Of a stretch of DNA of 64,000 nt, positions 1,895 through 51,866 are shown piece after piece. The translations under genes were made by a program, and so were the position numbers. The stretch is taken from contig CAJINV010000015.1 of NCBI GenBank assembly GCA_905178155.1, forward strand, positions 62,001-126,000, given 5' to 3'. The notes beneath the pieces were generated by a model, which saw only the letters and a program-made list of their open reading frames with translations, had not been told where the DNA came from and made no database searches. Numbering within the stretch: position 1 is the first letter of the stretch; every line of letters begins with the position of its first letter. The stretch is from Amoebophrya sp. A120 (taxonomy: Eukaryota; Protista; Dinoflagellata).

Positions 1895-2959
1895 TCACGC
1901 CTGACGAAAGCGTGCGTTGAAGATCTGGTCAAACAAGTCTTCGATTGTAGTAACCTCACTCCCAATAACCACGCTGTCAACATCCGCGTCACCGCTAACC
2001 AACCTCTGCTGATTCTCGATGCCCTGGCGAACAATGCCGACCTCGTTCACCAAAAAATCCAAACTTCCGAACCAAGAGCACGCACCACTGTTTGTAGAGG
2101 ATGTTCCTGCCGGAGAAGATGTTGAACTGGAGGTCATTACACCCGACACGGCTACCTGGTTCATCTGCACTGCTTTCAGCAAATATTCGGTAGCAAAAGC
2201 AATCGGAATCTCGTTTGTGGAGGTGTAGTCCTGGTTGGCTTGCCTGGTGTAGTGCTGGAAGATTTTCCACAGCTCTTGCAGCGCGTTTTCCACCCCGATG
2301 CGGAGGAGCTCGGTCAGGAACCTGGAATGTTCAGGTTGTCATGCAGAGTTTCATTAGTTTCATGTCAATAGATGTTGAGAAACTTCCATTTTTTGTCATG
2401 CAACAGGCAACAGAAAATAAAACCACAACTCAATACGGTGTGTATGCCACCAAGTCTCCGTTTGCCCGGCCGCCGTAATACTCCAAGCAGACCTTTTATC
2501 CAAGGAAAGAAGTGTTACAGTTACACATTTGTAATGTAATTCCAGCATCACAAAGTTGCTCTGCATAGCAAAGAAAACTTGTAATGCGCAGACTACAAGG
2601 GAAAACACGCGTACAATGAGGCCGGCAAGCATTTCCTGCATGACAGAGGTTGCTCGTCTTGCTGGACATGCATCAGAGTGTGTAACTGCAACATTTTTTT
2701 CTCAGGATACCCTTTCCGCCTTCAACGCCAAAACCGAATCGAAGTGCAGCAAGTTGCTCAACACGTAGCCAATCACGTCCACCGAAACCCGCCCCTTATT
2801 CTCCTCGTCGTGTTGCTTGAAAAAGCTGTCTGCTTGCAGCAGTTGGGGCCCAATCTTCGGGTTGGAAGCGTGGAGAAAAAGCTCGAACAGGCAGTTTTGG
2901 TAGCTGGATTTCTGCTTGTGACTCTTCACCAGCTTGGTGATCACGTCTCTCGGGACCTG

Positions 2960-6000: not shown

Positions 6001-9000
6001 CGACCGCGTAATTTTGGAAAAAGTCCGGATGCTTGTTATGACCCGCTCAAATCGGTTACCATCTCAAACGTTACAATAGAATCTGGATTTTGTATTGCAT
6101 GATGAGCATGACAGACCCGCACAGCGTTTCACTTTCTGCAATACAAATTTCGCCAGATTCCAGTTCGGGTTGGAGCTCCAGAACTTGTCATGCGCAATCC
6201 TGTGGGAGTAGGGTAGATCATGCACTTCTTGCATGACAGATTTCCATATTCTATTGTAACCGATTTGAGTATTGTAACGGCTGAGCGGGTTATACTGGTG
6301 CGCAGCGGACCGCGTCAGACTGTTGATCGCGTTCGCATCCGGCTTATGCATTGCAAATATGTCTGGGTCTGGAAGAATTGGAACTTGTCATGCAATTTCT
6401 GGATCGTGCAAAAATCTGTGTTGCAGGATTAGCAAAAGCTGTCCACTCTTGACCAAGTTGAGAGGCAATTTCTCATGCAGGCGAGGCATGATAGAGGTCG
6501 CACAGAATCTGTCATGCTAGGTCATGTATGACAGACCTCGCGCCTCATGGAAAACCTGCATGACAAGTCTTGCAACCTTCCAGACCCAGACACTTTTGCA
6601 ATCCATACGGCTGGGGACCACCAGTCGTGCTGGTGGGAGTAGGCTGCCTATCGATCATCCCTGGTGGTGTCGTTCCGGAATTATAGGAGGCAGCTGCGAG
6701 GGGTTTACCATGCTTCGAACGTGATATGTTGTCCTGCTCCATTTCTTCAATGCGGCTGATTTCCTGGTCCAGCAACAAACTTCCAGTGGCCCCATCCACG
6801 ACGTGGTCTTCGTAGTACAGCGTCGGGGTGGCGACGGAGGTTTTGCTAGTCGCGGCATTGTTGTTCTGGGCAGCAGCAGCAGCTGCTGCTGCTACTACAC
6901 CATTTTGCTCCGCCGCATCGTGGATGTCCTGTAGTTCGCCGTGCGTGATCGCGTGCTGCAGCGCTTCGCTCTGGAAGTGAATTTTCTCCAGATCCCCCGC
7001 CATCGCCTTGGCCAGGGCCAAGTGCTCTTTACTGACCGCATGAGCTGTTCCTCGGGCCCTCCTCTTTCTCGGGATGGCCGGGTTGTTACTGTGAGGAGAC
7101 GTCGGTGACGGATTGTTGGACGTCGCCTGGTCTACTTCTGCGCCGGGTAGTGGTACTGCGGCTGGAGCAACATCCTGTGGCAGCTCCTTTGAAGACTGGC
7201 TTTGATGTCCCTTCGAATGACTGTCGTCGTCATCTTCACTGACCATTGCTGCCCGATCTTCGGCTTTCTTCTGGTTTTGTTGCTCTGCTCTCAGCTGTTG
7301 TAACTCAGCCTCTGCTTTGTCTAGCGCCGGCTCCAGGCTGGAAACCAGACTGTCAACAACCTCCGCGTGTTTCTGACTAACCCGATTGGTCGGTTGACCT
7401 TCCAACATCGCTTCCGACGCATGGCGGTACAGGACCTCGATTTGCTCAATATGTTCCGAAACCGCAACGATGTGTGAAAGCCGCTCGTGGTTTGGTTTTT
7501 TCGGCGGTGCGACGTCCTGCTCTTTTGGTGAAGCCTGTTCGGAGGTATATGATTTGATGGAGTTCTTGTAGAATTCTGTACCCATGAGCGCAAACATGAC
7601 AATATCACAAATCATGGCGTATAGTACAATCATAAGTAATCTTCAAAATAATCAAAAAACTCTTATCACAAAATCCTATATATAATACCAACTCGCCCTC
7701 GACTTTTTTGGTCTTCCTAGCCGGCATCACTGTTTTCACCGTCAAACTGCTCTGCAACAACGGTGGTGCCTCGAGAAACGGCGAGCTAACGGAACTTGCC
7801 TTGCTATCCGACTTCGATATCCGGAGTTCCACCGGCTCCAAAGCGATCGGCTGGTGCAACACCGGCACGGGTTCTTGTGTTTGCTGCTGCTGCTGCTGTG
7901 CCGGGGATGGCTGTGATTGGTTGTTTCTCGGATCAACATTGGGCGTTGGGAGAGAGCTATTCGGAGGCTGTGGCGCAACACCTCCTCCGTACTGGTACCC
8001 AAGAGCAGCTGCTGCAGGTCCTAGCACCGCTGCACACGCCCGTGGCGACGCCACCAGTGCGACTTTGGGCGAGGTCGGCAACAACCTCTTCGGCAGCGAC
8101 ACCGCATGATCTGTGCCCTGCGGTCGCGGCGACAAATTCACCAGTTTCGTGTTCCCGCCCTCTCGGAAATCCACGACACCGCGTAAATTCTTCAAACTGG
8201 ACTTATCCTGTGCAAAAGTATCGCACTCGTAGTAATTGCAGTCATGCATTACAAATTTTTTTCTTAAGGTAAATCCGCATGACAAATTTTATTTTTTTCT
8301 CATGCTGGGGAAATTTGTAATGCATTTATACGAGTATAGTACGATACTTTTGCAGTTCAAAGGACCGGAGATTCTGCAATTCCGGACTTCGGGACCGGTA
8401 GATCCTGTCGAGCTTCTCGTCGATGTTCTGCTTTAGCTGGTCGCTGGAAAGTGCGTTTCCCTGCCTGAGCCCCAGCGGCCGCACGAGCTCGCGGCCGCGG
8501 ATCGGAAATTGGTTACTATCCACCGGCGGACGGGCCGCGAGCGTGTTGGAGGAAAGCCACAGAGTTGGATCGACCGGGATCACGTTTTCGGGTTTCAGCT
8601 TCAAAACATTCGTCCTTTTCTGTTCGGTAGAAGTTGCAGCTGGGGGTAGAGGACCTTGGCTTGCTGTTGCTGCTGCTCCTGTTGCAGCAGCTCCAGTTCC
8701 TACTTGTTGTTCTGGAGATCCACGCGTCCCTATCGGCTCCTCACCGGGCGACACTGGCGGCTTCGCTTTCACAAACTGCTGGCCCGTTGTCCCGCTGTGC
8801 GCGGACGACCCTGCAGACCGATTAGAAGAGGGCTTCGATGTTGCCACTGGTTGTTCCATCTGCTGCTCTGGAGGAGCAACCGTAGTAGTGTTCGGTAGCT
8901 GCTGCAAACCAACCATAGGTTGCAAATTCGCCAGATTTACCGGGGTCAAAAATTGCGGCACTGGGATCGTGTAAGAAGTCTGCGGCGGTTGCGATTGTCC

Positions 9001-9636
9001 ACTCTGCTGCTGTTGCGGCACCATATTGGTTAACCCTCCCCGCATCGCTTCCAGTGAAATGGATCCCAATGGTACCGGCTGAACCTGAACCTGCGGGAGG
9101 ACACTGGCAGCTGCTGTCCCACTTGTTCCCGCTGCACCAGCAAGGTTATTAAAACCCTGCTGATTTATTGTAGTAGACGAAATCCCCTGCCCCGGCGGCG
9201 AGTGCGATCTCTGCTGACTCATTTGCAACAGGCTGGTTCTGGGAGGTGGCTCGAAAAGTTTCAAGAACCCATTCGGATCAAGACTCGCTTTTGACGACTT
9301 TTTGTCAACATCCATTTGCTCCAAGTCCTGGTCTAAATTCTGATCCAAATTCGATAGTGGGAAGATCTGCTGCGGCTGCAGAGATATTAAGCCGGCGTTT
9401 TGCGATGGTGCGAGAGCAGAAGTCGCGTTGGCTGTTGTATTATTTCCGCCGAAAACCAAACCCGCGATGTTCCGTGGTGAGTTGTTGATCATTTTGGTCC
9501 GCAGGCTGGAAATGCTTTGCGCGGCGGCCAGTTGGGCTCGGACCGGGCTGACGCCGGGACTGGAGGGCGGAGAGTGCTTCGGCTCGCTACCGGATTTTAG
9601 GAGTATGGAGGCAAGAAATGAGCTTGAGCTTTCCAT
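1895..9636 (-). CDS. Multi-exon CDPK/CAMK-like pseudokinase with a long low-complexity N-terminus and C-terminal EF-hand-like motifs (may extend 5' to 11389)
   Basis: Exons join in frame after removing each element plus 5 nt. Kinase motifs: VKHPNLVQVLDFFEDYQYFYLVYE, PHGKITVDNVFV (HRD lost), LVNYG (DFG lost), WSMYSPHAFDFYALL...WEEIRSHPWL. EF-like FKQHDEENKGRVSVDVI and VAYTPFLTELL. Junctions near 2950-3170 and 7620-7690 are less certain. Confidence 0.75.
2322..2436 (-). other. Canonical GT-AG intron
   Basis: CC|GTATTG...TTCCAG|G gives in-frame VAYTPFLTELL. Confidence 0.7.
2497..2709. mobile_element. TIR introner, family E
   Basis: TAT..ATA, ~30-bp TIR, flanks CCTTT/CCCTT. Confidence 0.85.
2961..2997. 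repeat. (TG)n microsatellite, probably intronic
   Basis: About 18 perfect TG units just before a CAG acceptor on the minus strand. Confidence 0.95.
3276..3596. mobile_element. TIR introner, family B
   Basis: TAT..ATA, TSD ACGCG. Confidence 0.9.
3667..3987. mobile_element. TIR introner, family B
   Basis: TAT..ATA, TSD TGGTC; close relative of 23127-23447 (inverted) and 53103-53430. Confidence 0.9.
4669..4813. mobile_element. TIR introner, family D
   Basis: TAT..ATA, TSD CCTTT. Confidence 0.9.
4861..5166. mobile_element. TIR introner, family B-like
   Basis: TAT..ATA, TSD CTATC. Confidence 0.88.
5334..5595. mobile_element. TIR introner, family A
   Basis: TAT..ATA, TSD TCGTG. Confidence 0.9.
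6037..6294. mobile_element. TIR introner, family G
   Basis: TATGACCCGCTCA..TGAGCGGGTTATA, flanks CTTGT/CTGGT. Confidence 0.85.
6345..6607. mobile_element. TIR introner, family A
   Basis: TAT..ATA, TSD CGGCT. Confidence 0.9.
8204..8361. mobile_element. TIR introner, family D
   Basis: TAT..AAA, flanks GGACT/GGACC. Confidence 0.85.
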
Positions 9637-9959
9637 GGAGCAAGTAGTTTGTAATGCACAATACTAAATCTAGATTTCGTATGGCATGCGTATCTTTTGC
9701 AAACAAGTTTAGTGGTCGCATGACAAATCCTGTTGAGTCGAAAACTACATCGTCTTGCATGGGGTAAAACTTCTGGATGGAGACATGGACATGTTGCGCA
9801 TGGACTCGCGGAGATGCTGTGGTAATTTGTGATGTTGGAAAAACTTCACGAGAAAGGAAATTTGTGTTGCAAAAACAGCTTCTGAAATAAATCTGACCGA
9901 CAAGGTAGAGCCGTATTAAAAACATTTGTCATCCAGATGAAACAACAAAATAGAAGTAC

Positions 9960-12007: not shown

Positions 12008-14586
12008 CTACTGGTTTGGTTCGGTGAGCTCTGCCTCGTCAAGTTCTCTGTGGCCGCTGGACTCCAGAAAAGCGATGGTCCACTTCAGGTTGATTAGCAG
12101 AAACTTCAGCGCTTTCGTCCATCTTTCGAGCTCGTTGAACTGCAGACTGATTTTGAAGCCCCCTATCTTGCTCCCGTCGGGCTCGATTTTGAATGGTAAT
12201 CTGACGTTTTTGTCCCGCGCGTGCAGCCACTCGGCCACTTCTTTGGTTGTGATGAGAAAACCAACCATGGCCTGGTCAAAGCGACGCGCTGAGTAGAAAC
12301 GTGTAAATGAACCCTCCGAGCCGTAGAGTTCGAGCGTCTGACCACTCGCGCAGCTGGATCATTTTGAGGTAAAAGAGTAAGATTTCGATGTCATGCTTCT
12401 TTTGAAAAAAATTAACTTCCTGAAGATGAAAAAAATGCAAGTTGAGGGAAGAGGAGCTTCTGCAACATCAAATATGGTGAATTATATCATCTTTAGATTA
12501 TACTCCACAACCGAGCTCGTGTTTCCGCACGGCTGCAAGCGGTAGCTCAGCTCCCCTTCGGGTATTCGCAACTTCCGCACTAACGTGTCGAGCAAAAGGC
12601 AAACAAATCCCCATGCGGAATTTATCTCGTCCCAACTGACGTCCACTTCTGGTAATCGGCCCAACCTGAAACCATTGATTTTTCCGAACTGCTGCGCCGA
12701 TTGCTGTATCGACAGCATGTCGGAAGTTGTGTTCGCACTGGAATAATTACTCGCTCCTTCCGGATGAAGATAGCCGCCCCGCCCAGCACTTGAAGAATAC
12801 CCGTCGTCTGCCGCGGATATCGCAAGAAAAAACTGTTTCACTGTGAACTTGTGATGCAGAACATGGAGCGCAGAACTATTTGTCTTGCTACACCTGCAAG
12901 GCATTGGATTTTCAAGCGTGTTTTCCCTTGGGAAGCGCGCATGACAGGTTTTCACTGTCATGTGTAGCAAACTTGTGATGCAGATCTTGCAAAATCATCA
13001 CAGTGAAACAGTTTTTTCGTGGGATAGCGGAGAAGCCGCAGGTAATGTGAAACGCGTCGTTCAGTACTGAGCTCTATCAAATGTAAAAATGTCTGGGTCT
13101 GGAAGAATGCAAGATTTGTGATGCAGGTTTTCCATGACCCATGAGGTCTGGAATGCGAGACCCAGCATGACAGATTCTTTGGGGTCTCTATCATGCCTTT
13201 CCTGCATGATAATCTCCCTCTCAACTTGGTCGAAAGCGGACAGCTTTTGGCACTCACGCAACACAGATTTTTGCATCATTCAGATTGAGCATGACAAGTT
13301 CTAATCTTCCAGACCCAGACATTTTTGCAATCCATAAGCTCTGCTTCAACCGGGTCAGCTCTAATTTCGTGTAAAGCTCGATCGCTTCCAGCTTCTTCCG
13401 GTTGTCGTCGAAATCAAACAACTCGATTTGGTAATTTGACAGTTTATATCAAATGCAAAAATGTCTGGGTCTGGAAACTTGTGATGCTAAAATGTGACTG
13501 GTGGGCGGACTGCAATACGCAGCCAAGCATGACAAATTTTTCAACTACAGTTTCGTTTTCCGCATGGCAAATTGCGTTTTTGCATGACAGGCAAGAGGCC
13601 ATTATCCTGCTCATGCATTACAGATTTATGAGTCATGCCAGACAAGCATGACGAAGTTGCAGTCTTCCAGAGCCAGACATATTTGCAATTGATAGTTTAT
13701 CCCGGTACAACTCCAACTCCTCTTGTTGCAGCTTCGCTATTTCCCCATCCAGCTGCTTCGACTCTTGCAACAACTGCCTCTCTTCCGCTTGTAACGATTG
13801 GAGCTGTTGTTTCAGGTTCGCTTCCTCGCTCTGCAGCGATTTTGTCAAATTCGCTGCTTTTGTGCTGCTGGAAGAAGAGTTGGAGTTCGCTGTGCTTGTT
13901 TGGGTCGAAAATAAATTGTGCTCCTGCGAAGTGGATTCCTGGTCTTCTAACTTCTTCAGCGCCACTTCCAATTTCCGCCGGTTCTCTTTCACCTCCTGGA
14001 CCTGCCTCTTCGCTTCATTGATCACCTTGGAAACGCACAAATCGCAAACCCCCAGCGCGGAGTTGGATGCTTGCTGGCCACCAGCTGCCGCTCCGGAGGA
14101 CGAGGAGGTTGAGTTGCCACCACTGTTCGCGGCGCTACCGAGAGCGGATAGGGAGCCCGTTGCTCCACCTTGCTCGTTCGTCGTAGAGATGAGTGTTTGC
14201 TTCCCCGTTGCTAACAGCAGTATCCTTTCCACCTTTGCAACAATCTTGTCCTTGTCGTTCCGCGCGTTCTGCTTCCGCCTTTGCTCACTATCTCCTCCAT
14301 CTTGTAAGGACCCACCCGCTCCTGCACTATCTTGGGACGACGAGGGGGTTGAGGACAAATTGCTGTGCAGCTGCTGATGTTGACCCTGTTGCAGTGCCTG
14401 CTGCTGGCCCTGCGTGTAGGATAAGACAACGTCGAAATCATCCTCCTTGATGACGGAAAGCTCCGCGTTGGGTATGGATGAAGTACCCGTTTGGAGGTCA
14501 TTGACCACTTCCAACGCGACGCTACATTTGATGCAGCGCGCCTGCTGCGAGTGCAGGGAGGCGGTGGAGGGCTGGGCAAGGGACAT
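12008..14586 (-). CDS. ATG6: Beclin-1 / Atg6 / Vps30 autophagy protein, 5 exons
   Basis: Coiled coil, then LKQSSVLNDAFHI, FGKINGFRLGRLPEVDVSWDEINSAWGFVCLLL, LELYGS...FDQAMVGFL and QFNELERWTKALKFLLINLKW. Needs removal of three elements (+5 nt each) and one GT-AG intron (12354-12503). Confidence 0.93.
12354..12503 (-). other. Canonical GT-AG intron in ATG6
   Basis: GA|GTATAA...ATCCAG|C gives SSVVDCASGQTLELY. Confidence 0.75.
12818..13026. mobile_element. TIR introner, family E, in ATG6
   Basis: TAT..ATA, TSD GCGGA. Confidence 0.9.
13075..13336. mobile_element. TIR introner, family A, in ATG6
   Basis: TAT..ATA, TSD AGCTC. Confidence 0.9.
13447..13694. mobile_element. TIR introner, family A, in ATG6
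   Basis: TAT..ATA, TSD GTTTA. Confidence 0.9.
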
Positions 14587-16201: not shown

Positions 16202-18187
16202 TCATTTGTCGCTTTTGTTACAACAACTTTTCACGATGTTGCTGCTGCTATTTGCCGACTTACCTTGTTCGTTCCCGGACACTTCCAGCCGGCGAAGCAT
16301 TTCTTCTTGAAAATCCGCTGTGCCGTCCGAACTCTTGTCGTCGAAACTCGTGTTGACAGTGACATCGGGTGCCGCTCTCTCATGCATTGCAAATATAATG
16401 TCTGGCGCGTCTGGAAAATTATCATGCTCGCTGATGAATGCCCACGAATTGAGGTGCGTCCAGGTCTACAAGAAAATGCATGACAGAACTCAGGAATATT
16501 ACCGATGGTCGTTTTCAGCATTACAAATCTACCTACAAAAAAATGAATCTTCCACACGAGGATGCCGACATGTTTGTGATGCATAAAAACCTGCTAAAGT
16601 AGAACTATTCCCCGCTGGCCGGAACAGTGGCAGAAAGCGCGTTCGGTTTTCCGGGTCGACAAGCAGTGTGTGACCGCTCGAGCAGGACGAGCTAGTATCG
16701 TGTCTGTCACACATGATGTGCTCCGGCTGTAGTTCGTTTATCCGCATGCCGAGATAAGAACTAGCTGTACCAGCGCGACGACCAGCGTTGTGGCGGTGCA
16801 GCGCTTCCGCGGTGAGGCCGAGGGAAGTAGAGGATGGCTGGTCATGGTTTAGTACTTCGTCGGAGGACAACATCTGGTCGCCCGTTCTTTCGACGCCGAA
16901 GCAGGGATTGTTTCCTTCCTCTGTCATCTCATTATCTCCCCAACGGGGCCGCTTTGGCAGTTGGGGGTCCTCGAAATTATTACCCACCAACAGGCTCCTG
17001 CACCGCTTCCTCATCGACGGCACTCCAGAACCAAGCCACGGCGCAGACATTTTTCTCCCGTCCGAAACATCAAACGGATAAGGAGCGAATTCTCCACTCA
17101 AGCGGGGGCGTTTGGAGGACGTGCTGCCTGGGAGCATCAGGTGACGAGGTGGTGGGCTGGTTCTACTCAAATTCGTCTCATCACGAGCTGCCTCGGCGTC
17201 GGAGGATTGCGCTGTGGCGTGTAACAAAGCAGGAGTAGTGCTGCTAGTAGAATTCGGCGAAGACAGCGACAAGCCGCTGCCCATTTGTTCAACTGCGTTA
17301 GTATCAAAACGCCGGAACAAGGAGGTTGCGTTTTTCCTTTCGAAAAGCCCGGACGAGGACGAAGCTCCTGGAAAAAAAGATCGCTCCTCTTGCAGAAAAG
17401 GTGATAAAAAACCACCACTGTTGGTGGTATTCGTATTGCTGGACTGGTGGTAATCGTTATCCTGAGTAAAAACGTACCCACACCATAGTCAAGATGGGGA
17501 ATCGGCTAGACAAATCCACAAGTTTTGTCTGTTTTGCATGACAAATTTGGATTCGTAGTGTAGTGCTGTTTGAGCTAGCTCAGCAGCATCACAGATCTAG
17601 CATACCATGCTGATTGGAGCATGACAAATTGCAAAACACGACTAGAAAATGCTTCTCATGGGGCTCCGCATGAGAAACATATTCAGCATGCAGATTTGCA
17701 TTACAACTCTGGTGTGGGTACGTTTTTACTCAGGATAATCGTCATACAATGTCTGCTGCTCGTGGGACGAGGTTGAAGAATCGTAGTACAAAGATGTTGT
17801 CGCTGGAAAATTCGAAGACGGTCCGCTCATGACAGGTGGATTGAAATTTTCCTCAGTCGTGGACCAGTTGATGTGGTTCTGAAGAAAAGAAGACGGCTTC
17901 TTGTCCTCCCCGAGCGGGCGCCAAAAGAACACGTCAGGGGACATAGTGCCGGAAGACGACCTTCGGTGGCGATCTTGATTCAAGTCCTGGTGCTGTTCTT
18001 CGGGAATGCGGGGTAAAATCTCGCCACCATGAGGCGGCTTTGCTTGTTTTTGATGTAACAACAACGAAGAGATTTGGGTCTCTACGTCAGGCACCTGTAT
18101 CAATGAAGACATGAACAAAGACCCTGCCACAGCAGGTGGCATGTAGGTAAATGTCGTTAAAAAAGTAACTTTTGGGAGGAGCAACAT
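16202..18187 (-). CDS. Hypothetical low-complexity protein, 3 exons
   Basis: ORFs 17726-18187, 16529-17320 and 16202-16387 join in one frame after removing 17458-17737 and 16381-16585 plus 5 nt each. No recognisable domain. Confidence 0.6.
16381..16585. mobile_element. Degenerate TIR introner, family A
   Basis: CAT..ATA, eroded TIR, no TSD; +5 removal keeps frame. Confidence 0.65.
17458..17737. mobile_element. TIR introner, family C
   Basis: TAT..ATA, TSD ATCGT. Confidence 0.9.
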
Positions 18188-20032: not shown

Positions 20033-23000
20033 TCAGCTCTCAACCATCACACTATGCTCAGCCGGATCGTAATGCTGTGAAGCGAAGTCCTCTCTTTCAC
20101 CCCGACAGAAATCGCCTTGAGAAGCAAAAGAAATCCCGCTCGGATTTTTAGGAAAAACATCGCCGACGACCGGAGAAACAGCGTTGTTTTCGCCTCCTGC
20201 TGTTGTTCGTCTACTAGGGTAGTTGATGACAACTACATCTCCCGGAGACGTTGAAGTCAGGGCCGAGGTGGACGCAGGCATGTCCGTAGCGACACCAACC
20301 CGCGATGGTGCAGCTACGGTAGAAGAAGAGCCGGAGGCTGAAATGTGAATGTGGTCGTTTTCAAAGTGCTGCCGGTCGCTTTTCCGCACCAGCTTCCGCT
20401 TCCGATTCTCCCGGGATTTACTTGCTTCATCATCTTTCTTCAGGTTCTTCAACCCTGGTGCAGCTGTGGTTGTGGTACTTGCGTTTTGATCCTCAGGACC
20501 CGCCGGCAGTCGTCCCTGCTTCGCCCGCTTGGCGGTTGGAGGTAATTGCAATGGCAGCTGGTCGTCCTCGCGGTTGTGGTCCGCAGGGTCGACGAGGTTC
20601 TTTCCGGTGGCTTCCTTGCTAACGCTGGGCCCAGCACAAAAATCTCGACTGCGCCGCGCCACCTCGTCCTCCGCTCTCAGCTCGGCTAAACGAGCCAATA
20701 TGGCCTCACCGTCGTGATCAAAGTTGTACGGTGACGGCGCTGCGCCTGCACCTGTTCCTGCTCTGGTGCAACGGATACTGTCGAAATGACCTGACTGCAC
20801 CGCACTTCCTTTCAGAAACGGGTGGCGAAGATTTTTACTGGGCGGTGTGTGAAGAAGGTGATGCTCCTCGTCGTAGTTGTGGAGTTGCAACCTGCCAGGA
20901 TTTGTTCTTTTTTCGTTGTAATTGTGATCGTGTTCATCTGCGAAGTTGTTGTTATCGAGCTCCTCCTCGTCCCCATAATACATGTACGACAGTGCTGGCG
21001 GGACCATAGTTGCACATGCCGTTCCCGCCAGATCAGCATGTGAAGTGGCTGCGCCAGTGCTGGAAAGATCGTCTTCTGCCATCCCGAGCAATTTGGGACT
21101 CCGATGCATCTTGAACGGAAACTGGCCAGACGCGTCTGTCAATAACTCCTGCTTGTTGTGAGATTGTGTGCGCTTGTTTATTTTCTTGTGTTTCTGGTCC
21201 TCACGGCGGTATTTTTTCTGACAGTTGGAGTGTATCAGCCGGCCGCCTGTATCAGCTATTACGCCGGGATGATGAATTTGCTCCGTCGCCCGGTAGTTCT
21301 GGAATTCGGGGCGGACCAGGAAATTGCGCTTCTTGTTATGCTGTTGCGCCACACCAAAGCCATACTCATCTTCCTGTGGACCAGTTTCCACCTCTTCGTC
21401 GCTCGATTCTAAATTCATGCTCTTCAAAATCGATGCGAGTTCGAACTCATCCTCAGTCGGAGGCCCGCCCGCTGGTGTTTCGGGGGTCGGACCGCGTGGA
21501 TGTAAAAGCAGTCCGCGCTCGACGTCCAGAGGCAGCTGCAACGGGCTTGCTCCAGCGACTCGTCCTGCAGCGAAAGTACTAAAAAGCGGGCTCTCAGCAA
21601 CATCCTCATCTACTTCAGCATGATGTTCATAATCCATTTCGGTCCTATATTCGGAGGCCCGGCCGCGGGCTCTCAAAGTGAAAAAAGCCCCCGCCCTATA
21701 TTGAAACGGAAATTTCTGTTGCTGGATTTGTGTACACAAATCAGCGCTGTATTGCAGCAAGCGCTTGCACACATTTCCTAAGCCTGATTTGGTATGCCAA
21801 AGGCTAGCACTCAGGCATGACAGACATGGTCGCAGTAAGCAAAAGCGCATGACAGCTTGGCTGTGGAATGCGCCACACGGCTCCCATTTGCCTCATATGA
21901 AAGACAAAGCTGACTTGTGGTCACAAATCACCATCACAAATTTCCATTGTGAGTGTGGGGAGGGGGAGTTTTTCCAGACTTTATTCAGTCTTCTGGTCGG
22001 GGCAAGGGAGAAATCAAGTCCAATGGCACCATGCACAGGCACAGCCAGACAGTGGCAGTGCGGGACACTGCGATAAAATGTAAACCGGCTCCTACGCGCA
22101 ACGACAACGCTCGCTAGGCGAGGCTGTAACAAATGGAGCTTGATGATGAGGCGAGATCGAGAGCGCTTGCAGTTGCAGTTGCGCTCCTAGATGATGTGGT
22201 GAGAAAATTATGGCGACCTGACGCAACAACACTGAACGAAAACGGAAGCCCCTGCGTCTCAATCTATACATGGAAACAGGTGACGTCGCTAAGTTTAGAG
22301 TAGTCATATACCTGTCTTTTCGGGCTGGTCAACAACTGCAGGCAGAATTCTGCTTCCGGTTCTTCAGGTACAGGCCGAGTACAATCTTCCACCGCGACAG
22401 CGTCGAACTATGGCCGGGCGGTATGGCTTTAGCCACGAAAACAGCTGGCTAAAGCCAGTGCTCAGGGGGTTTATTTTTGGCAAAGTGTCCTCATCTACTT
22501 CAGCATGATGTTCATAATCCATTTCGGTTGTACAACTCGTCGCCTGTCCACCTCCCCCACGCTGCCGTAGAATCTGGTCCAAGAGGAGCGGTTGCTTCGT
22601 TCTAGGGTGTTGCAGGAACACCGTCGAAGAAAAGGGATCTACTTCGTCCAAGGGGCGTGATGAAGCTGGTTGGATGGAATTCATCCGGTTAGCTGTCGGC
22701 GCCGACGCCACGACAGCACCTTTGCCTGCAACAGAACTGGGGCTGCGCATTATCGTACGGAAAAATCCCCCCTCCCCATATCAAAACGGAAACTTGTGAT
22801 GCTGATTTGTGGCCACAAATCCGCTTTGTATTGCAGAGAGGCACTGCGGCCAGATCCCCAGGCTAGGTAGGGGCGTATTGCTCTAGTTGTTCAGCATGGC
22901 AAACGACTCCCCTTTAGGCCCAACAGCATGACAAATCGCTTCCATATGGGGCGGAAGGTTCTGCCCTTGTCTCCTTGCAAGACAGATGTGATTTGTGACC

Positions 23001-23777
23001 TCAAATCCGCAAGACAAATTTTTGGAAACATACCTTTTCAATGTGGGGAGGGGGGATTTTTCCTCTCAATACGCATGCCAATTTGGCTTTTCGTTCGCGA
23101 AAGGGGCGTGAATACGCGGCTGTGAATATCAAAGTGAAAAAAGCCCCCACCCCATATCGGAAACGGAAGATGCGCGAATTTGTGATGCTGCATTTGAGTA
23201 CACAAATCAACTTGTATTGCTAGAAGGCCAAGAGACGAAGCTGCGGCCTAAATCGCAGGCAATCTGTCATGCTGTTTCCCGCTTCCAGTTGCCTTTTGTC
23301 ATCCTGGAGCTGCAAGGCTTTCCAACGCTAGACAGCACTACAGTCCGCATCTTTTGCCTTCTAGCATCACAAAGCTGATTTGTGACCACAAATCTGCATC
23401 ACAGATTTCCGTTTTGATATGGGGAGGGCGCATTTTTCATTGTAATAGTGAAGATAGAACTGGTCGTGATCATCGATTTCTGTCGCCCCGACACGCTGCT
23501 GCCCGAATAAATGCTGCTCATGTGGAAAGAGCACTCGGCTTGAAGGAGCCTGAGAATTATCCTCCTTTCCCTGCTGGTGCGGGGACAGGAATAAGGACCG
23601 ACTCGCAGTAGAAGCGGTGGTGCACAGGGTGTTGTTGAGAAAGAGGCTTGCGCCAAGTACTAGCCTTGCGATAGGACCACGACGAAAAACAGCCCGCGCA
23701 GAGGAAGACCTTTGGTGAAGAGGCTGCACACAATGTCCTTGCCGAAGGCTATCTCCTGGTCGCAACATTTTCATCAT
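20033..23777 (-). CDS. Hypothetical protein, multi-exon (structure of 22130-22440 unresolved; could be two genes)
   Basis: Long ORF 20033-21670 plus upstream exons kept in frame across elements 23127-23447, 22751-23071 and 21671-21983. Confidence 0.55.
21671..21983. mobile_element. Degenerate TIR introner, family B
   Basis: TCT..TTA, no TSD; +5 removal keeps frame. Confidence 0.7.
22751..23071. mobile_element. TIR introner, family B
   Basis: TAT..ATA, TSD CGCAT. Confidence 0.9.
23127..23447. mobile_element. TIR introner, family B
   Basis: TAT..ATA, TSD GTGAA. Confidence 0.9.
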
Positions 23778-23877
23778 TTAGAGCAAAATAAATGCGCAGC
23801 AACACTTGCACTGTTGACTGCGGGGCTCTAGTACGAAAAATCTGCGATGAATCTGGCTGAAATTTTGTTGGGTCGCA

Positions 23878-24110
23878 GAAAAAATCTCAAAGTGTGAAGT
23901 GTATGCTCGGGAAAAAAATATCAAAGTGTGAAGTGTATGGTCGGGGAAAAAAACATCAAAATGCGAAGTGTATAGTCGGGAAAAAAATATCAAAGTGTGA
24001 AGTGTATTGTCGGGAAAGAAATATCAAAGTGCGAAGTGTATGGTCGGGAAAAAAACATCAAAGTGTGAAGCGCATGGTCGGGAAAAAAACATCAAAGTGT
24101 GAAGTGTAAC
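23878..24110. repeat. Minisatellite, ~34-bp unit, ~7 copies
   Basis: Repeated AAAAAA(T/C)ATCAAAGTG(T/C)GAAGTGTATGGTCGGG with decaying copies to ~24190. Confidence 0.9.
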
Positions 24111-24890
24111 TTGCTCAGGAAAAAATATCAACGTTGGGTCAGGAATAAAATATCAAGGGCACAGCAAAAATAGGCTCAAGAGTGAAGTGTACGAATGCAT
24201 CACAATTGGAGTGACGGCCTAAAGGAAAAACGAACTTCGCAGGCATAAGACAAGAAAAATATTTCTAGCCGAGCACGAACCTGGCGTCCGAATTAATATC
24301 GCAAGGCAAGTTGAAATCGATATTTACGGATTTTTAGGATACAATTGAAGAAGCAAGCGGAAAGAAAAAGGTAGTATTTATGTTTGCTAACAAACCCACC
24401 GCTGTTGCTGTTTGGGAAGGGAAAAATGATTTCGTTTGAAAAAATGCCAGCGATCATGCTGGAAATAAACAGTTGTGGAGCTGGTTGTTTTTTTGAACCG
24501 GATCAGTTTTCAATTCGGTTTTCTTGCCTGCCACGGTTGATCTTCGTCCTTGACTGATTGGCCTCGAAAGCGAGACGATCTGCAGCCTGGGAAAAGATGA
24601 TCAAGATTCTGAGTAGGATCAGGATTTCGAGTACGCTTCAGGTAGGATCAAGATTTATTTGAAGAGGAGCTCTTTGTACTGGGCCAGATTCGCATCATCG
24701 CAAAATTTAGTAGTTTCGAAGATTTTATTGGGCTGTACATGGCAATGATAGTGATACGTCCGTCGGGTAAGCATGAGTTGAATTATGAGAGCATCGACAT
24801 GACACCTTGAATGGAGATGCACTTCTCAGTCAGAAACAGTAACGCATCGCCAATTTTCTATTTCACTATCCCTGTATGCCCTCAACATCT

Positions 24891-27800
24891 TCACCCGTGC
24901 CCACTGCACCTTTCCCAGGTTGCAACGATGTTTTCTTTCGCGTCCTCGACAACCAAACTTCGATACTGATGACACGCCGCGCAGGAATGGAACGGCGCGA
25001 TGGTGATCACGGTCCCCACTGGGTACTTTGCGGCTAGATTTATTTTCATACTTCTAGGAGCTTTTTTTCCCCCGCCTTCCTCGTCCTTCACCACCACTTC
25101 CCCCGTCTCCTGCTTGATATTGTGAGGAACAATCCCCCCTCCCCATACCAAAAAGCGGCACTACTGAAAACTTGTGATGCTGATTTGTGACCACAGATCG
25201 TCCCTTTATTGCCAGAGGGGAAAGCCAGAGAATCAGCCGCGTTTCGCAGGCGCTTTGTGATGCTGGATCGCCTACAGAAGACATGCCTGCCTTGCTAGGT
25301 GCCTACAGCAAAACGCCCCTACTCAGTCGCTGCATCTGCCTGCAGTCCTCTACTGCTAGACAGATTGGATTTGTGTACACAAATTTCGCATCACAGATTT
25401 CGGCTTTGATATGGGGAGGGGGGATTTTTCACTTTGATACTTGAGGCTCTTGATTTTCAACTCCGGGTGCGACAGAATTCTGCCGTAATTCACTTCCGCC
25501 CCCTGCGTATCAATCGCAAAAATGTCTGGGTCTGGAAGATTTTAGGACACGTCATGCAGGGTTTGCATGACCCATGAGGTCTGGAATGCGGGACTTAGCA
25601 TGACAGACTCTGCGAGGTCTCTGCCATGCCTATTCTGCATGAGAAACTCCGTTCCAACTTGGTCAAAAGTGGACAGCTTTTGGTACTCACGCAACACAGA
25701 TTTCTGCATCATTCAGATTTAGCATGACAAGTTGCAATCTTCCAGACCCAGACATTTTTGCGATTCATATTGCGCGGACATGCCCGTCCAACCGCAGTCG
25801 ATCAGGAGTTTCTCTTCGTAAATCGATATCACCGTCGCTTTCACAAAACACGCAACGTCAGATATCAAAAGGAAAAATCCCCCCTCCCCATATCGAGACG
25901 AAGTTTCTGATGCTGGATTTGGATACACAAATCAAGTCTGTGTTGCAGTAGAGGACTGCACGCGGATCGTAAGCCTAGGCAGGGGCCTTTTGGTGTAGGC
26001 GCCTAGCATGGTAGACGGCCGCCCTGTTGGCCTTCCAGCATTACCAAGCGCCTGCATAACGTGGCGCACAGCCTGAACTTGCCTTCCTGCAAGACAGACG
26101 CGATTTGTGGTCACAAATCTGCATCACAAATTTTCAGACGGATGCGTTTCCAATATGGGGAGGAGGGATTTTGCCTCACAATATCGGAAATGTCGCAGCT
26201 TTTGATCAAATCCGCCTGCTATCAAATGTAAAAATGTCTGGGTCTGGAAAGTTGGAACTTGTGATGCTAACTTTGGACTCTAAAAAAATCTGTATTGCAT
26301 GACCAGCAAGAGGAGCCACATTTGTGCTAGGCGAGGAGGGCATTTGTCATGCGGAAGTGGCATCAGGAAGCTTTCCAAAAATCTGTGATGCTGGGTCATG
26401 CATTACAAGCATCATGGGTCATGCCAGACAAGCATGACAAGCCTTCCATTCTTCCAGACCCAGACATTTTTACATTTGATACCTGCATCTGGTCGAAAAA
26501 GAGGTAGGATCAAAGTGAAAAATCCCCCCCTCCCCATATCAAACTGGAAATCTGTGATGCTGATTTGTGGCCACAAATCACTTTTGTCTTGCCGACAGGG
26601 CAACAGGAGCCCTGTGGCGCATTCTAAACCCCGTCTGTCATGAGCTTTCGACTACTGCAAACCTGTTTGCTATGCCTAATTGCTAGCCTTCTGCATACCC
26701 GAACAGGCTTGGAAATAAATACCGCCAGGCACTTTCTGCAAGACAAATCTGATTTGCAACCACATATCAGCATCACAAATTTCCTTTTCGGTATGGGGAG
26801 GGGGAATAATTTTTCCTCACAATAGGTAGTTCCCGCAATGGAGCTCCGTCAGTTTAAACACTTTCGGCTTGTAGTTCGGATTTATCCGACTGATCGCCGT
26901 TGGTAAAAATGTTTTCCCTTGTAGCGGTAGATACCTATTCGGAATCTCGAAACTGCAGCTGGGCGTGCTGCCGATGGTGATTTCGGGGAATTCGAATTGG
27001 TCACAAGTTTCGTACACCCGCTTGGCAAACTCCACGGCAGTCGTTGCTTCCTCGACAAACGCCTCGACGCACTCCTTCTGCGTTTGACAGCTGTACGCCG
27101 GGGCTGCGTGGATGTAGATCCCGTGTAGTGTGAAGGATTTTGGGTTTGCCAGTAGAAATCGCATCAGATCCAATGCCTCTTCTCCCTCCGGGTTTAACCC
27201 AGCCTGGTGCATCTGCAGTGGCTGATGTTGTTGTTCGAGGTGGTCTTGATTTGGTTTCTTGGCAGCAACAGTACTGCCGCTCTTTCTCTTTGATGATGCT
27301 TCTTGCTGTGAAGCTGTAGATGATCTTCCCCCGACCATAACATAGACGGACAGCTTCTTCGTTATCTTCGCTTTTTTCACCAAAAACTCCGCTTGCTGCA
27401 CGTGATCGATTAGGAAGTGCACAACCTTCTCCTCCGGTGTTTTTTGCTGTTCCGTATTATTAACCTCGTCCTTCTTCCGCCTCTTTGGTGATGAACTTGA
27501 TTCCCCCTTGTCTGGTAGTACTTCCTTCGAAGATTTTGAAAACAAAAACGGCTGCAGAATCTCGCTTTTCACCTTGGAAACCGGAAAAGGAATCGCGTAG
27601 ATCACGTCCGTGAAGTTGTGCCTATTCACGTAGAAATCCAATTCCTGCAACGTTGACACGATGATCGTGGATCTCTTCCCTCCGGTTTGCAGCAAAGCGT
27701 ATGGCGGTCTCAGCTGTTACATTCTCAACTGTTACACGGATTTGTCATGCACAATTGCCATTAGCCTCCACTTGATCAAGGTGCTTAGCATGACAAACCT

Positions 27801-28080
27801 TCGAAGGGCTAAACAGCATGATGATCTGTGGAAAATCTGTGATGCGAAAGCTGCAATATTGGCACTTTCACTGTTGCTGTTTTTGCAATACAAATCCATG
27901 TAACAGTTGAGAATGTAACGTTTGAGAACGCCATAAAGCGCCCTCCAACGTTTTGTGCGTCTTGACGTGCGGACGGAAGTTCAGGTCGAGTTTCTTGCAC
28001 TTGTCCAGCATCTTTTTTGCGTTTCGCTCCGCGGTCGGGAGGCGGACCACGCAGGCGGGGGTGGAAAGAGACGAAGGCAT
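24891..28080 (-). CDS. DSD1: D-serine dehydratase / D-threonine aldolase family (fold-type III PLP enzyme), 7 exons
   Basis: STPACVV, FRPHVKTHKT (PLP lysine), GIYIHA, ITIGSTPSC, ELHCGNYLFFDQMQ, VKATVIS...LLIDCGWTGMS, LKQETGEV, IAPFHSCAA. Motifs are continuous only after removing six elements plus 5 nt each. Confidence 0.88.
25118..25439. mobile_element. TIR introner, family B, in DSD1
   Basis: TAT..ATA, TSD CTTGA. Confidence 0.9.
25508..25769. mobile_element. TIR introner, family A, in DSD1
   Basis: TAT..ATA, flanks CTGCG/TTGCG. Confidence 0.9.
25863..26183. mobile_element. TIR introner, family B, in DSD1
   Basis: TAT..ATA, flanks TCAGA/TCGGA. Confidence 0.9.
26220..26481. mobile_element. 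TIR introner, family A, in DSD1
   Basis: TAT..ATA, TSD CCTGC. Confidence 0.9.
26508..26824. mobile_element. TIR introner, family B, in DSD1
   Basis: GAT..ATA, TSD GGTAG. Confidence 0.88.
27700..27935. mobile_element. TIR introner, family G, in DSD1
   Basis: ~37-bp TIR TATGGCG..CGCCATA, TSD AAGCG. Confidence 0.9.
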
Positions 28081-29134
28081 AATTTTGCGTCTAATTATTT
28101 CGAAGCGACTAGAGACAGAGAGGCATAGCGATGGGCTGCATACTGTGGCTTTGTATTAAGCTGCAACTACAAGACCGCTTCCAAAGACTTTGACTGAGTC
28201 TTTTCGCAGCACGCAGATAGCTTACCAGCTGCGGCGTCAGATGCCTTCGAGCGTCTTCAGGTGTCTGTGTCTCGGATCTTTTAAAACAATGCGCAAGAAG
28301 AAATCACTACCGAATTGTTCATACACCTGACTTGTGTTCTGCGGCCGCGAAATGACGCACAAGATCGCAAAATGCCGCGGAAACCAAGAGACGAACAAGT
28401 TGCCACGACACGCCGAGTCTTCACACTCTCGCTTCTATGCGAAATCCTTATCCCATGCTTATTTTATTTTCAAGACTGATGCTCCGTGCGTTAGAATTCT
28501 GAAGTCAGAGTGTCCGAAACTGCTTCCAAAATCCCATTTACGGGCGAAAGTAGTATCTATCGGCGGTCAGCGAGGCCGGACCACGCTAGGAGGTACGAAG
28601 AAGTATCCCAGAGGGAAGAATCTTCTAGTTCGATAGTTTGTGACTTCTCTAGTAAACTGAAAGTTTGTCAGTGCTTACACCTGGAGTCTTTTTCGTTATT
28701 TGCCTGACTCACTTATTCAGCACATTTTTTTTTCATCCGTTTCGTTTTTTGAGTATTTTCTTGCTATCGATTCTTTCTCTGGATGTACAGACGCGAGTAT
28801 CAATAGTTTTCGTGCTCTTTCTTACATTACTCAAAATCAAAAAGCGAATGTCTCTTTCCCTGCTGCGCAATTATTGGCAACGATGGGTTCATATTAGGGT
28901 AGCCAGCGTTTCCTCATTATGTTTGAGTGCTGTTAATATAACATCTGGAGTGGCTTGAGTACTGTTGTTTCGAGGTGAAGCAGCTGAAAAGTGGGCAAAA
29001 AAAAAAACAAAAAAAAATTTTGTGCTGGATGCTTATGCACCAGAAAAAAGCTGGCAGTGGAGACGTTTTATGGAAAATGGAAACAGTTCTGCTGCAGCAT
29101 TCGGGTCCTCGACCACTCCTGTCGGATACAACAG

Positions 29135-31942: not shown

Positions 31943-34900
31943 TCATTCGTCGTAAAACGTCGCCCCCCGTGGCTGTACGTACGCCCCACCCTTTATCCAA
32001 GAAAAAAACACCATCGCCGTCACATTTAGGAGGTTTTGCATCAGAAATTTGGCTCGCATGACAAATTTTTATTGTATTGCAAAAACACAAAGGGAAATCG
32101 TCTATAAATCTTGACTGTGATGCATTTTTGCGCATGACAAAAATTTTTGTATTGCAAAAATGTGCAAAAGTGATTGTGATGGTGTTTTTTCTTGAATACC
32201 CTTCTCGGTTTGGTAGAAAATCAGGGAAAATCGTTGGTTTTTCATTGCTATGAAGTGCAAAAGCATCGCACTCGTATTGATGCATTACAAATTTCCTCAG
32301 CATGAGAATGTAATGCGGATTTACCTCAAGAAAAAGATTTGTATATGCATGACTGCAATTACTACGAATGCGATACTTTTGCAGTTCATAAGTGCCGTTC
32401 GCTGCTTCAGGTGCCGGGAGAGGAAGGAATTGCAGTCGTCTACATCTTCTTCTTCCTGTAATTCTCCCTCTTTAGAACTATCGTTCCTTGACGATTTCTT
32501 GGATGCTTGGTCCGTTTGTTTCGCCGTCCCCTTATTTTCACCGGGTTCTCCCGGTGCAGCTGATCCTTGTTTCGGGCCCCACTTCGCCACAAAGTTCTTG
32601 GCATGGGCCGTCGCGGCTGAGCCGTCTGCAAGACAACTGTGAGCATCTGTATTCCTGGGTTCTTGTGTGCCCGCATAGGAGGTGGTGTCCTCGGACTATC
32701 ACAGCGGAAAAAGCTGTAGCACGACGGCATCTATGCAGCTACTCGTCCTACTGCGTAGTTCACAAAAATGCGAAGAATATCAGTCGCGGTCGACGTTCCA
32801 TGCTGTAGTTTTCATCTACAGTGACATACTTTCACGTTGTCGTGCGGCACGACGTCGTAAAATTGAGTCATGGAAGTCATGGCAACAATTTTTTCTGCAA
32901 AAAAATTCTGCAAAAAATAGCGAAAACTTTTCTTTGCAATCGTGCGCGTCGTTCTACATCTTCTCTGTGGGATACGTTCCAACCTTCCACCCAATCGGCC
33001 ACCCAGTGCACAAACCGGCCGTCGATTTTCGCAATCCGGTTGCGCGTATTCACTACCGCGACTTGCCGGCTGCACTTCTCGACGCAAATCTCGCCGCCCT
33101 TGAAATTCCCAACCGATATCGCGTAGAAGTTTCGCTTGTTCTTATCCTGAGTAAAAACGTCCCCACACCAGAGTTGTAATGCAGATTGGCAAAGACAGGA
33201 AGACTTGTAATGCTCATCCCCATGAGAGCCATTTCCAATCGTGTATTGGAATTTGTGATGCTGTGAACAGGATGAGCAGATGAGTCTGTGATGCCGCTGC
33301 ACTTGCTGACCTGCACTACACTGCGGAGTGCAACTTGTCATGCGTGACTCCCAAAACTCCTAGGTTTGTGTTGCAAAATCCCCATCCTGACTCTGGTGTG
33401 GGTACGTTTTTCCTCAGGATAGTTCTGGTGGTCGATGTGCGGCGAGCCCTGGAAGTTGTGGGTGACCGCGAGCTGATCCCAGTGCTCCGTCACAAATGCC
33501 AAATCCGCGCCGTTGTTGTACTTGGTCAAGGCCGAACGCAAAACGATTTCCGCCAAGGCCCAGATGTCGCGCTTCAGGTCAATCAGTCGGTTGTTCGCAC
33601 AGTGCAGGTTGTTCCGACAGCTTGGGTCCCGCAGGTGGCGGGTCGCGTTGGCCATAAACAATTTGATTTCTTCCGCCTCTGACATTTTCACGTCTTTGTG
33701 GGACACGATCATGTAGTGTTCCGCGTCGACGCTGGGTCGCTCCCGTTTCCGGTTGGGATGGAAGCGGTCCTGGAAGCAAACCCAGTCGATTAGTAGTTCC
33801 AGCAGCTGGTCGCAGAGGTACTGGGGAACCGCAAGATCTGCCGGTCCCTGGAGAAAGATACGGTCCCGTCTCGGGCCGCCGGCGTCTTTAGACAGATTGT
33901 CTTCAACACCATCCTCGTGGTCGAAAAACTGCGAGATATGACGAGGATTATTGCTTTTTGGACGGTCTTGTTGGTTCTGGCGACGAAGAAATTCCAGGAA
34001 CGAATTGACTTGCTGAAACGGCGCAGCAGGAGCACTTACTGTAGTCGTCGTGGCACTTCTACTGCTTGCTGATCCAGTAGCACCACTTCTTGCCGAAGAT
34101 GAGGATGAGGATGAAGAGGATATTGATGTTGGTTCAACATCTACCTGAAAAAAAGTACTATTAAACTGACTTCTCCTTGCTTCCAAATCGGCCGGAGTTC
34201 TCCAAATCAGCTCGCTCATGTAGCTCTTCAGCAGCAATTCCATGGCCTCAAAGCGCTCCATATCCAAGGAAAAAAGTGTTACAGTTACACATTTGTAGTG
34301 AATTCAGCATCACAAATTTGCCTCGCATCACGCCGAAAACTTGTAATGCAGAGATCATAAGGCAAAACGCACACAAAACGAGACACGCATGCATTTTGCG
34401 CATGACAGAGGTCGTCTGTCTTGCATGTTTTGCAACACAATGGGTAACTGTAACACTTTTTTCTTTGCATACTCGAAACCCTCGATCCACTCTTTCGCCT
34501 GGTCATTGACTTCGCATACCGCCGATCGTTCGGCCGCTTTCGCCTTTTCGGTGATCTTTTTCTGCGGAACGGGTGCTTCGATCGTTTTCCACCGTTGGAT
34601 CTTGTAATTGGAGGACTTGATTTCCAGTAGCTCCGAACCAAACAAAAGCAGCTGGTCCTTTTGTTCGCTCGTCAGCGTCATTTCGTACTTTTCCTCGTAC
34701 ATCCGTAGCATGTCCACCAAAAACTCGAAGAGTGCGTGCTCAGAGAAAAACTTGTCCTCGATCAGCCGCCGCTTCAATTCCTTCGTGGCAAGCGGCTCTA
34801 GTTGCGCGCGGAGGGAATTCGAATCCCGGTCGGAGGGGCGGAGGCCGTTCATCTGTCCAAAGTAGGAGAGCTTGATTTGGAGGGCGCGGGGAGGGCAGTC

Positions 34901-39744: not shown

Positions 39745-40373
39745 TATCTCGATCGCAGAGCCTTCATCTCAATCCCATTCATAATCTCCATCTTGGAAAA
39801 ATTATACACACTTTCATGCCATCACTATTCCAATCGTAAAATCTTCATCGCAGTCTTAAAGTCATGCTCTGCACTGAAAATCGCAATGCATCACCATCAT
39901 CATATCGAATGGGCGGGGGGGGGGGGGGGGGGGGGGGCGAGGGCCCCCCGCACTTATCTCGATCGCAGAGTCTTCGCCTCCATCTCATTCATAATCTCCA
40001 TCGTGGAAAAATTATAAACACTTTCAAACCACCACTATTCCAATCTTAAAATCTTCATCGCAGTCTTAAAATCCTACTTCGCACTGAAAATCGCAATGCA
40101 TCACCATCATCATATCGAATGGGCGGGGGGGGTGCGGGGGGGGGCGAGGGCCCCCCGCACTTATCTCGATCTCAGAGCCTTCATCTCAATCTCATCCATA
40201 ATCTCCATCTTGAAAAAATTATAAACACTTTCATACCATCACTATTTCAATCGTGAAATCTTCATCGCAGTCTTAGAGTCATATTCTGCACTGAAAATCG
40301 CGATGGATGCATCACCGTCATCATATCGAATGGGCGGGGGGGGCGCGGGGGGGGGCGAGGGCCCCCCGCACTT
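39745..40373. repeat. ~208-bp tandem repeat, 3 copies, each ending in a G-tract/C-tract
   Basis: Units start near 39751, 39961 and 40168; each contains GAATGGGCG(G)nCGAGGGCCCCCCGCACTT. Confidence 0.9.
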
Positions 40374-50362: not shown

Positions 50363-51866
50363 TTAATCTTGTCCGTGGTCCTTTGGTGCGTGTCGGCGGT
50401 GCAGGAATGATGGTGATGAAACGCCGTGTAGTCCTGTACCACCCGCAGGCGAAGAGGTGGATGATGCTCCTGTAGTAGTGCCAGCTGTAGCACCCGACCC
50501 AGGGTAAGGGACGCTGTGTGAAGAAGAAGACGAGCTCGAGCCAGCGCCGCGCAACGCCGCATAAGAGCCTGGCCAGCAGGCGTCCATGGTTTCCTGTTCT
50601 GGCGCCGCGGCAAGAGTACTACTAGCCGGTGGAAGCGGTCTCGGGCCGAGCAGTGACGTTGTTAACAAAGCGAGTTTTTGGTTCTTATCATAGAATACTC
50701 TCCGCATCTGCTCTTTGGGGTGGTTCCTACACCCGACGGCGCAGCTTCTCCCATTATTGTACCCGTCGATGAGGTATCAAATGTAAAAATGTCTGGAAGA
50801 ATACGCGATTTGTAATGCAGGTTTTCCATGCCCCAGCATGAGGTCTGGAATGCAGGGCCTAGCATGGCAGATTCTGCGAGATCTCTAATATCATGCCTAT
50901 CCTGCATGAGAAACTCCTTGTCACCTTGGTCAAAAATGCACGGCTTTTGGTACTCATGCAACACAGATTGTTGCATGATCCAGATTTAGCATGACAAACA
51001 TGCATTCTTCCAGACCCAGACATTTTTACAGTTGATATGAGGCAGGCTTGGCTGTTTTCGAAACAAACATGTCCAGAGTAGCGCACGCAGGCTATCCCAC
51101 AGAAAAAAGCTGGCAGGTGTCATGTTTGTATTATTGTGCAGAAATTATAGGTTAGTAGAGAAAAAACCCGTTCTTGTAGTTACACGTGGAGCTGCAGCCT
51201 GCTATGGATCTGGCCATGAAGACAGATTTTCCTGCGTAGGCGTACTCATTTGGTTTTAATACACTTTGATATACATCAAACATGACCTGTTACAGCTTTT
51301 ATTTTCCGTGGGATACAACCTCCGCAACTGACCGCGTAGTCGCGCACACCCTCGCGAAACTGCTGTCGTCCGTATTCGGTGCCCAAATAGTAGTGGGTCG
51401 CGTTTCGTATCATCGTTCCCTTCTGCTCTTGTCGGTAAAAACCCTTTCCGGCCTCAATGACGTCTCCGGAGCGGCGCATCAAGTATTGCACCGCTTCATT
51501 GCATATCAAATGCAAATATGTCTGGGTCTGGAAGATTCTGAGACTTGTCATGCACGGGTTGCATGAGCCATGATGTCTGTGATGCATGCCCTAGCATCAC
51601 AGGTTTTTTGAGGGATTCTTGATGCCTATTCCGCATGACAAATGCCCTCTCCGCGTAGCAAAAATTAGAATCCTTTTGCTGCTCATGCAACACAAATTTT
51701 TTACACATCCAAACGCAACATCACAAGTTGCATTCTTCCAGACCCAGACATTTTTACATTTGATATTGCAGAAGAGGGACGTCTGGCCGGACTGAAAAGA
51801 CGCTGCTTGAGACTCCGTGCCGGTCGATAAAGCTGAAATTAAATGGATTTTTTCGTCTTATTCTGT

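Follow-up and report, generated by a model that had tools for sequence, protein, structure and literature searches.

The ATG6/Beclin gene of Amoebophrya sp. A120 raises the question of how an intron with none of the usual terminal dinucleotides is removed from a transcript that also carries an ordinary GT-AG intron. The gene lies in the 64-kb stretch of DNA analysed here (64,000 nt, referred to as the window), whose host label is backed by 100% identical protein records. The intron of interest is a short element flanked by two copies of a direct repeat (Table 1); on the minus strand its sense sequence reads GA-TAAAC-[TATCAA...TTGATA]-TAAAC-TG, exactly as an earlier sequence-only reading of this DNA had given it. 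The predicted RNA fold of the element has a long terminal stem (z = -5.4), and 0 of 200 shuffles were equally stable. Relatives were found in the window at 53825 (72% core identity) and 54271, and near-copies are numerous in a DNA-like sequencing run (X5).

Table 1. Coordinates in the window of the ATG6 gene and its introns, of two further genes, and of elements whose direct repeats differ between copies.
Feature	Position	Strand	Description
ATG6/Beclin gene	12008..14586	-	5 exons, 564 aa; APG6_N and APG6 BARA domains (Pfam)
Focal introner element, ATG6	13447..13694	-	248 nt, bounded by TIRs, no coding capacity; each end has the TAT-N7-AAA motif
5' TIR arm (sense), focal element	13665..13694	-	27/30 complementary to 3' arm
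3' TIR arm (sense), focal element	13447..13476	-	contains U-tract
Upstream direct repeat TAAAC, focal element	13695..13699	-	predicted to be retained in mRNA: all 5 or first 4 nt
Downstream direct repeat TAAAC, focal element	13442..13446	-	inferred to leave with intron: all or first 4 nt
Span containing the excised 253 nt	13441..13700	-	joint 13440->13694 in runs X2, X3, X4
Second introner element, ATG6	13075..13336	-	262 nt; skip of 267 nt in 4/4 runs; no canonical register
Third introner element, ATG6	12818..13026	-	209 nt; skip of 214 nt in 4/4 runs; no canonical register
Canonical GT-AG intron, ATG6	12354..12503	-	donor GTATAA; joint in 4/4 runs
P0008 gene	1898-11419	-	1723-aa record, protein kinase domain PF00069; 16 introns, of which 12 are elements and the other 4 GT-AG introns without an element
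Very large gene	50366-64000	-	runs past window end; >20 elements; four non-element intron zones
Element	32249..32390	-	unequal at position 4; upstream letter in protein record; tightest bound, sole site bounding position 4
Element	34261..34471	-	unequal at position 2; upstream letter in protein record
Element	32697..32974	-	unequal at positions 2-3; upstream letters in protein record
Element	8204..8361	-	unequal at position 1; upstream letter in protein record
Element	2497..2709	-	unequal at position 3; upstream letter in protein record; GT-AG register at 4-nt cut too
Element, different family	6037..6294	-	unequal at position 3; upstream letter in protein record
Element, degenerate	9604..9766	-	no recognisable repeat; upstream letters at positions 1-2 in protein record
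Element	25508..25769	-	unequal at position 5; difference synonymous

A TAT-N7-AAA inverted repeat, a border repeat of 3-5 nt, removal without GT-AG ends and membership of a repeated family define the A120 introners, and all are found in the focal element, which is almost certainly one of them. The TIR, TSD, short length and lack of coding capacity also agree with a MITE. Farhat et al. 2021 (PMC7789003) reported that more than 60% of A120 introns are non-canonical, that introners carry the TAT-N7-AAA inverted repeat and direct repeats of 3-5 nt, and that 'heterogeneous' genes combine both intron types; a cognate autonomous transposase was not found in A120 in that report. The focal element matches those introners in organism, motif, 5-nt repeat, length (~250 nt), hairpin, absence of a dinucleotide rule and location in a mixed-intron gene. 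It is an instance of this published class, from which it does not differ in kind; with the phenomenon published and the gene model already in databases, the observation as such is a known one. The sequence-only reading had presumed novelty, a premise overtaken by the same report, where the elements, the mixed-intron genes and the undetected U1 are already described. The A120 introners were later assigned to diverse TIR transposons (Gozashti 2025), and introner findings were restated or extended in PMC11282704 (Mob DNA 2024), PMC11453091 (BMC Genomics 2024), PMC12130899 (PNAS 2025) and PMC12787238 (IJMS 2026), whose accessible text gives no mechanism. What can be added here concerns the position of the cut, which the Fig. 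3 legend of PMC7789003 calls 'unknown' and 'variable', whereas the present data point to a fixed register that keeps the upstream repeat copy.

Taking out three elements and the GT-AG intron from ATG6 gives a single open frame, whose product is identical to the 564-aa protein record P0001, labelled Amoebophrya sp. A120, except for the start Met; its APG6_N match is weak and under the curated cut-off (Pfam). If the focal element is retained, the frame stops at 316 aa, ahead of the BARA domain. Transcript-like contigs from four runs of a single sample (X1-X4) were placed on the gene at 99% likeness. These runs are presumed to be RNA, a status supported by the absence of the GT-AG intron from contigs that also skip the elements. 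One contig each in X2, X3 and X4 carries all four ATG6 joints (skips of 150, 214, 267 and 253 nt), while in X1 the 150-, 214- and 267-nt skips are present and the contig breaks at the focal junction. The loss of 253 nt from these transcript-like contigs is precise and restores the 564-aa frame. Raw RNA runs X8 and X9 gave 218 and 3 partial reads on element repeats and 0 on exons, and are hence uninformative for this locus.

No other letters were found at the joints in the X2, X3 and X4 contigs at 99% likeness, so that neither partial exonisation nor RNA editing at the junction, the outcomes which the sequence-only reading had named as counting against it, was seen in the transcript-like contigs. 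That reading had also placed a GT-AG intron at 12354-12503 in ATG6, where sequence and contig joints agree on it, and had proposed two processing modes acting on one pre-mRNA. At transcript level the two intron classes are borne out, a single contiguous transcript-like contig lacking introns of both; that two machines act does not follow, since the data fit one relaxed spliceosome as well as they fit a second machine.

The focal junction is ambiguous over 7 nt, which gives eight equivalent 253-nt registers, from 13441-13693 to 13448-13700, with ends that read in order AT-CT, TA-AC, CT-AA, AC-AA, AA-TA, AA-AT, TA-TA and AT-AT. None of the eight has GT-AG, GC-AG or AT-AC ends, in agreement with the earlier claim that no canonical register exists; the TSD TTCAC cited in the same claim, at 23127, is present in the sequence. 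Ends of the U2 type (GT/GC-AG) are therefore absent, as are ends of the U12 type (AT-AC or GT-AG) at the observed length. Two AT-AC registers close to the junction were rejected, as their lengths of 252 nt (frame stopping at 305 aa) and 259 nt (561 aa) do not agree with the 253-nt skip; with U12-type AT-AC introns the element shares only chance AT-AC pairs near the junction. The minor spliceosome and minor snRNAs were reported absent (PMC7789003).

The window contains 59 such elements: a first scan for exact 5-nt repeats found 36, relaxing it raised the number to 55, and protein records led to four more. Fifty-seven of the 59 lie inside minus-strand frames that are 150 aa or longer, where 57% of random positions also fall, and excising 20 elements from 52036-61204 gives 1204 codons with 0 stops. 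The TAT-N7-AAA motif is present at 49/55 5' ends and 45/55 3' ends. Within families both orientations occur (30 same and 29 opposite among 59 clear pairs), a terminal stem is predicted in 56/59 sense and 55/59 antisense folds, and a U-tract near the 3' end is supplied by the complementary arm in either orientation. A canonical register is available at 6/55 elements, a chance level given the 4.8 expected from random insertion. CTRAC was found in the final 60 nt of only 2/55 elements, and neither the excess of G at repeat position 5 (19/55, p 0.14) nor that of AG at positions 3-4 (6/55 against 4.1 expected, p 0.22) was significant. Selection for canonical registers was not seen: the register counts are at chance, and repeat composition has no significant pull toward GT or AG.

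TIR remnants were also sought in five GT-AG introns of the window; none was recognised (best 10-15/24), in a weak test in which two real degenerate elements score 11 and 13. Two stretches with TIR-family sequence and no clear direct repeat, 21671-21996 and 16381-16585, are possibly decayed or exonised and were excluded from the counts.

Between 50 and 64 kb the very large gene has four zones that call for an intron other than an element, and candidate GT-AG introns that keep the frame are present in all four. In one of these candidates, 61159-61266, CTAAC is found close to the 3' end; a further CTAAC lies at 51155. The sequence-only reading had assigned three GT-AG introns, one with CTAAC, to an unnamed large gene, which holds roughly, the candidate zones being four and defined from sequence. 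A full-length protein record for this gene was not found in the record search, which returned a 284-aa relative (97%; 274/282 identical, spanning 5 element sites) and one at 43%. The gene at 24894-28155 (minus strand) has five elements and an HVKTHK motif, which we take to be typical of D-serine dehydratase-like PLP enzymes. Other repeats in the window are an intergenic tandem array of 34-35 nt units (23872-24123, family D18), three tandem copies of ~208 nt that are not TIR elements (39745-40351, family D16), and short duplicated coding-like segments common to neighbouring frames (20036-23777; 38168-38485 and 42569-42838). The first 1000 nt have a GC content of 0.70, against ~0.48 in the remaining window. 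The minus strand carries the long reconstructed gene frames, consistent with the unidirectional clusters reported for Amoebophrya sp. A120.

Identical repeat copies hide the position of the cut, while unequal copies reveal it. Copies are unequal at 16 of the 59 elements, of which seven have synonymous differences and so are uninformative through proteins (25508, 25863, 35021, 52686, 55313, 57143 and 58247), two (53103 and 57466) had no covering protein record in the search for the large gene's protein, and seven are readable. The readable sites were scored from protein records P0004 and P0008. Both are gene models derived from aligned transcripts, so that the evidence on register comes from models and not from reads, and covers two genes and one pipeline, on the minus strand throughout. 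The letters of the upstream repeat are retained in the annotated proteins at 7/7 testable elements (two-sided binomial 0.016 if the sites are independent, which is not assured). Retention of the upstream copy at every testable site suggests that, if the register is fixed, the cuts fall 0-1 nt before the hairpin (TAT) and 4-5 nt after it (ATA). A fixed and asymmetric register is probable. For the focal element, where the fate of the upstream repeat is extrapolated from these other elements, the predicted excision under a fixed register is 13443-13695 (CT-AA) or 13442-13694 (TA-AC).

The downstream copy has AG at positions 3-4 in 2497-2709 and 53103-53430, which would serve as acceptor under a 4-nt cut; a drift toward canonical ends is possible in these two elements. 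GT-AG registers occur at other offsets in 57466-57788 (3-nt cut) and 52686-53009 (1-nt cut). Mapping of the cut through unequal repeats was not found in the literature on Amoebophrya and dinoflagellate introners that was searched, most subscription papers being outside it; figures S19-S25 of Farhat et al. could bear on the register.

The removal of these elements can be explained in several ways, of which a relaxed major spliceosome is favoured and is given an even chance. DNA transposition most probably brought the focal element into the exon, as its TIR and 5-nt duplication suggest, and its precise excision with one copy of the repeat would likely occur at a fixed distance from the terminal hairpin. 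In the 1-nt register the intron would start N-UAU, in agreement with the window's GUAU donors at +2 to +4; 4/5 annotated non-element GT-AG donors start GTAT. The spliceosome would tolerate any base at +1 and, in place of AG, would use the spacing from the stem to locate the acceptor; owing to the symmetry of the TIR, the donor-like start and 3' U-tract would be the same in both orientations. The likeness of N-UAU to the local donors is the reason for preferring a relaxed spliceosome over a nuclease and ligase, and it requires the 4-nt cut; with a match as short as UA, chance may be the explanation. Two further points stand against this mechanism: in the predicted fold the donor-like bases lie within the paired stem and would need melting, and no acceptor or branch signal was found at the elements in the window.

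Published data on the two strains bear on the same preference. Nearly all spliceosomal proteins plus U2, U4, U5 and U6 were reported for A120, which speaks for the spliceosome; U1 snRNA was undetected, which speaks against it (PMC7789003). In strain A25 junctions are TT-NN and repeats begin with TTA and two purines (PMC7789003), which again places U and A at +2 and +3 and was counted for the spliceosome. The A120 motifs of Table S4 are all NT-NN, and 8/9 also end AN (PMC7789003); they reflect the aligner's choice among equivalent registers and were not counted as support. Introners of Fritillaria appear to be removed by the spliceosome (review PMC11282704). Those of F. borealis are also MITE-derived and non-GT/AG, with TIR and TSD in exons (PMC11282704; bioRxiv 10.1101/2025.08.15.670264), but they have preferred ends AG-AC and AG-AT together with evidence for removal by the U2 spliceosome, whereas the window elements show no sequence preference at the 3' end.

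The main competitor, rather less probable, is a route like that of Euglena, for which a stem-reading nuclease/ligase has been proposed (PMC12501133): a protein endonuclease and ligase would read the TIR stem, cut at fixed offsets, join the exons and likely release a circle, leaving only the GT-AG introns to the spliceosome. The near-equal orientations within families, the stem predicted on both strands and the lack of acceptor and branch signals all favour it, as does the failure to find U1 in A120 (PMC7789003). The symmetrical TIR, though, accounts for orientation independence under the spliceosome as well, and the element start is donor-like UA(U) in both strains. Euglenid nonconventional introns share with the focal class a TIR stem that joins the ends, a MITE-like origin, coexistence with GT-AG introns and asymmetric stem-to-cut spacers (PMC12501133; PMC11282704), and in their asymmetry the offsets resemble those of the Euglena code, N3CDG-/-CH'GN5-6|R (PMC12501133). 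That signature is not present in the focal element, however: the euglenid motif is CAG/CTG in place of TAT...ATA, the euglenid offsets are 3 and 5-6 nt (PMC12501133) against a predicted 0-1 and 4-5 nt here, and the euglenid rule that the exon resumes with a purine is not evident in the window elements. Full-length excised circles were shown for Euglena; the resemblance of the window elements is one of working principle.

A second dedicated ribonucleoprotein, with divergent U1/U6 or as a variant spliceosome, could instead pair with the conserved TIR motif, which is improbable. The TAT and the A-run are indeed strongly conserved across unrelated families, U1 was missed by homology search (PMC7789003), and a novel subunit was proposed by Farhat et al. 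(PMC7789003); binding by a transposase would also conserve the TIR, and Rfam gave 0 matches in the window.

Much further behind comes IES-like excision at the DNA level, limited to certain nuclei or stages, in place of removal from RNA. The ends are transposon-like, and a precise event of this kind would remove exactly the element and one repeat copy. Against this, X5 contigs go from exon into both element ends with the GT-AG intron kept, and no precise joint was present among the 15 joints listed (348 more lay outside the listing).

The least likely reading, template switching by reverse transcriptase over a repeat-flanked hairpin, would make the junctions a product of cDNA synthesis and the elements not truly spliced; a stable hairpin with short direct repeats is a textbook setting for it and all RNA evidence here is cDNA-derived, but the downstream copy would be expected to stay, so that upstream retention at 7/7 sites in the records argues against such an artefact, retention of the elements would break ATG6 and the 20-element frame, and the element interior (13578-13673) is not covered by contigs at 99% in any of the four runs, where contigs may lose rare forms.

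To a known phenomenon the analysis adds a cut that is likely fixed and keeps the upstream copy, and it names sites at which a single letter in the reads would tell the models apart. The unequal-repeat test makes the border called unknown in 2021 measurable from ordinary RNA-seq, its result would separate the spliceosome from the nuclease/ligase model, and naturally unequal target duplications would allow genome-wide mapping of the cut from existing reads. Tentatively, and with the odds somewhat against it, the tens of thousands of transposon introns of A120 may be removed by a ruler mechanism in which the TIR stem sets both cuts, the 5' one a single base ahead of the stem (N-UAU) and the 3' one four bases beyond it, with no requirement on terminal nucleotides. 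If true, this would be splicing without G+1 or AG that works in either element orientation, the agent being a spliceosome lacking U1 or a new nuclease/ligase, and the mechanism would show how a genome tolerates about one exonic transposon per kilobase.
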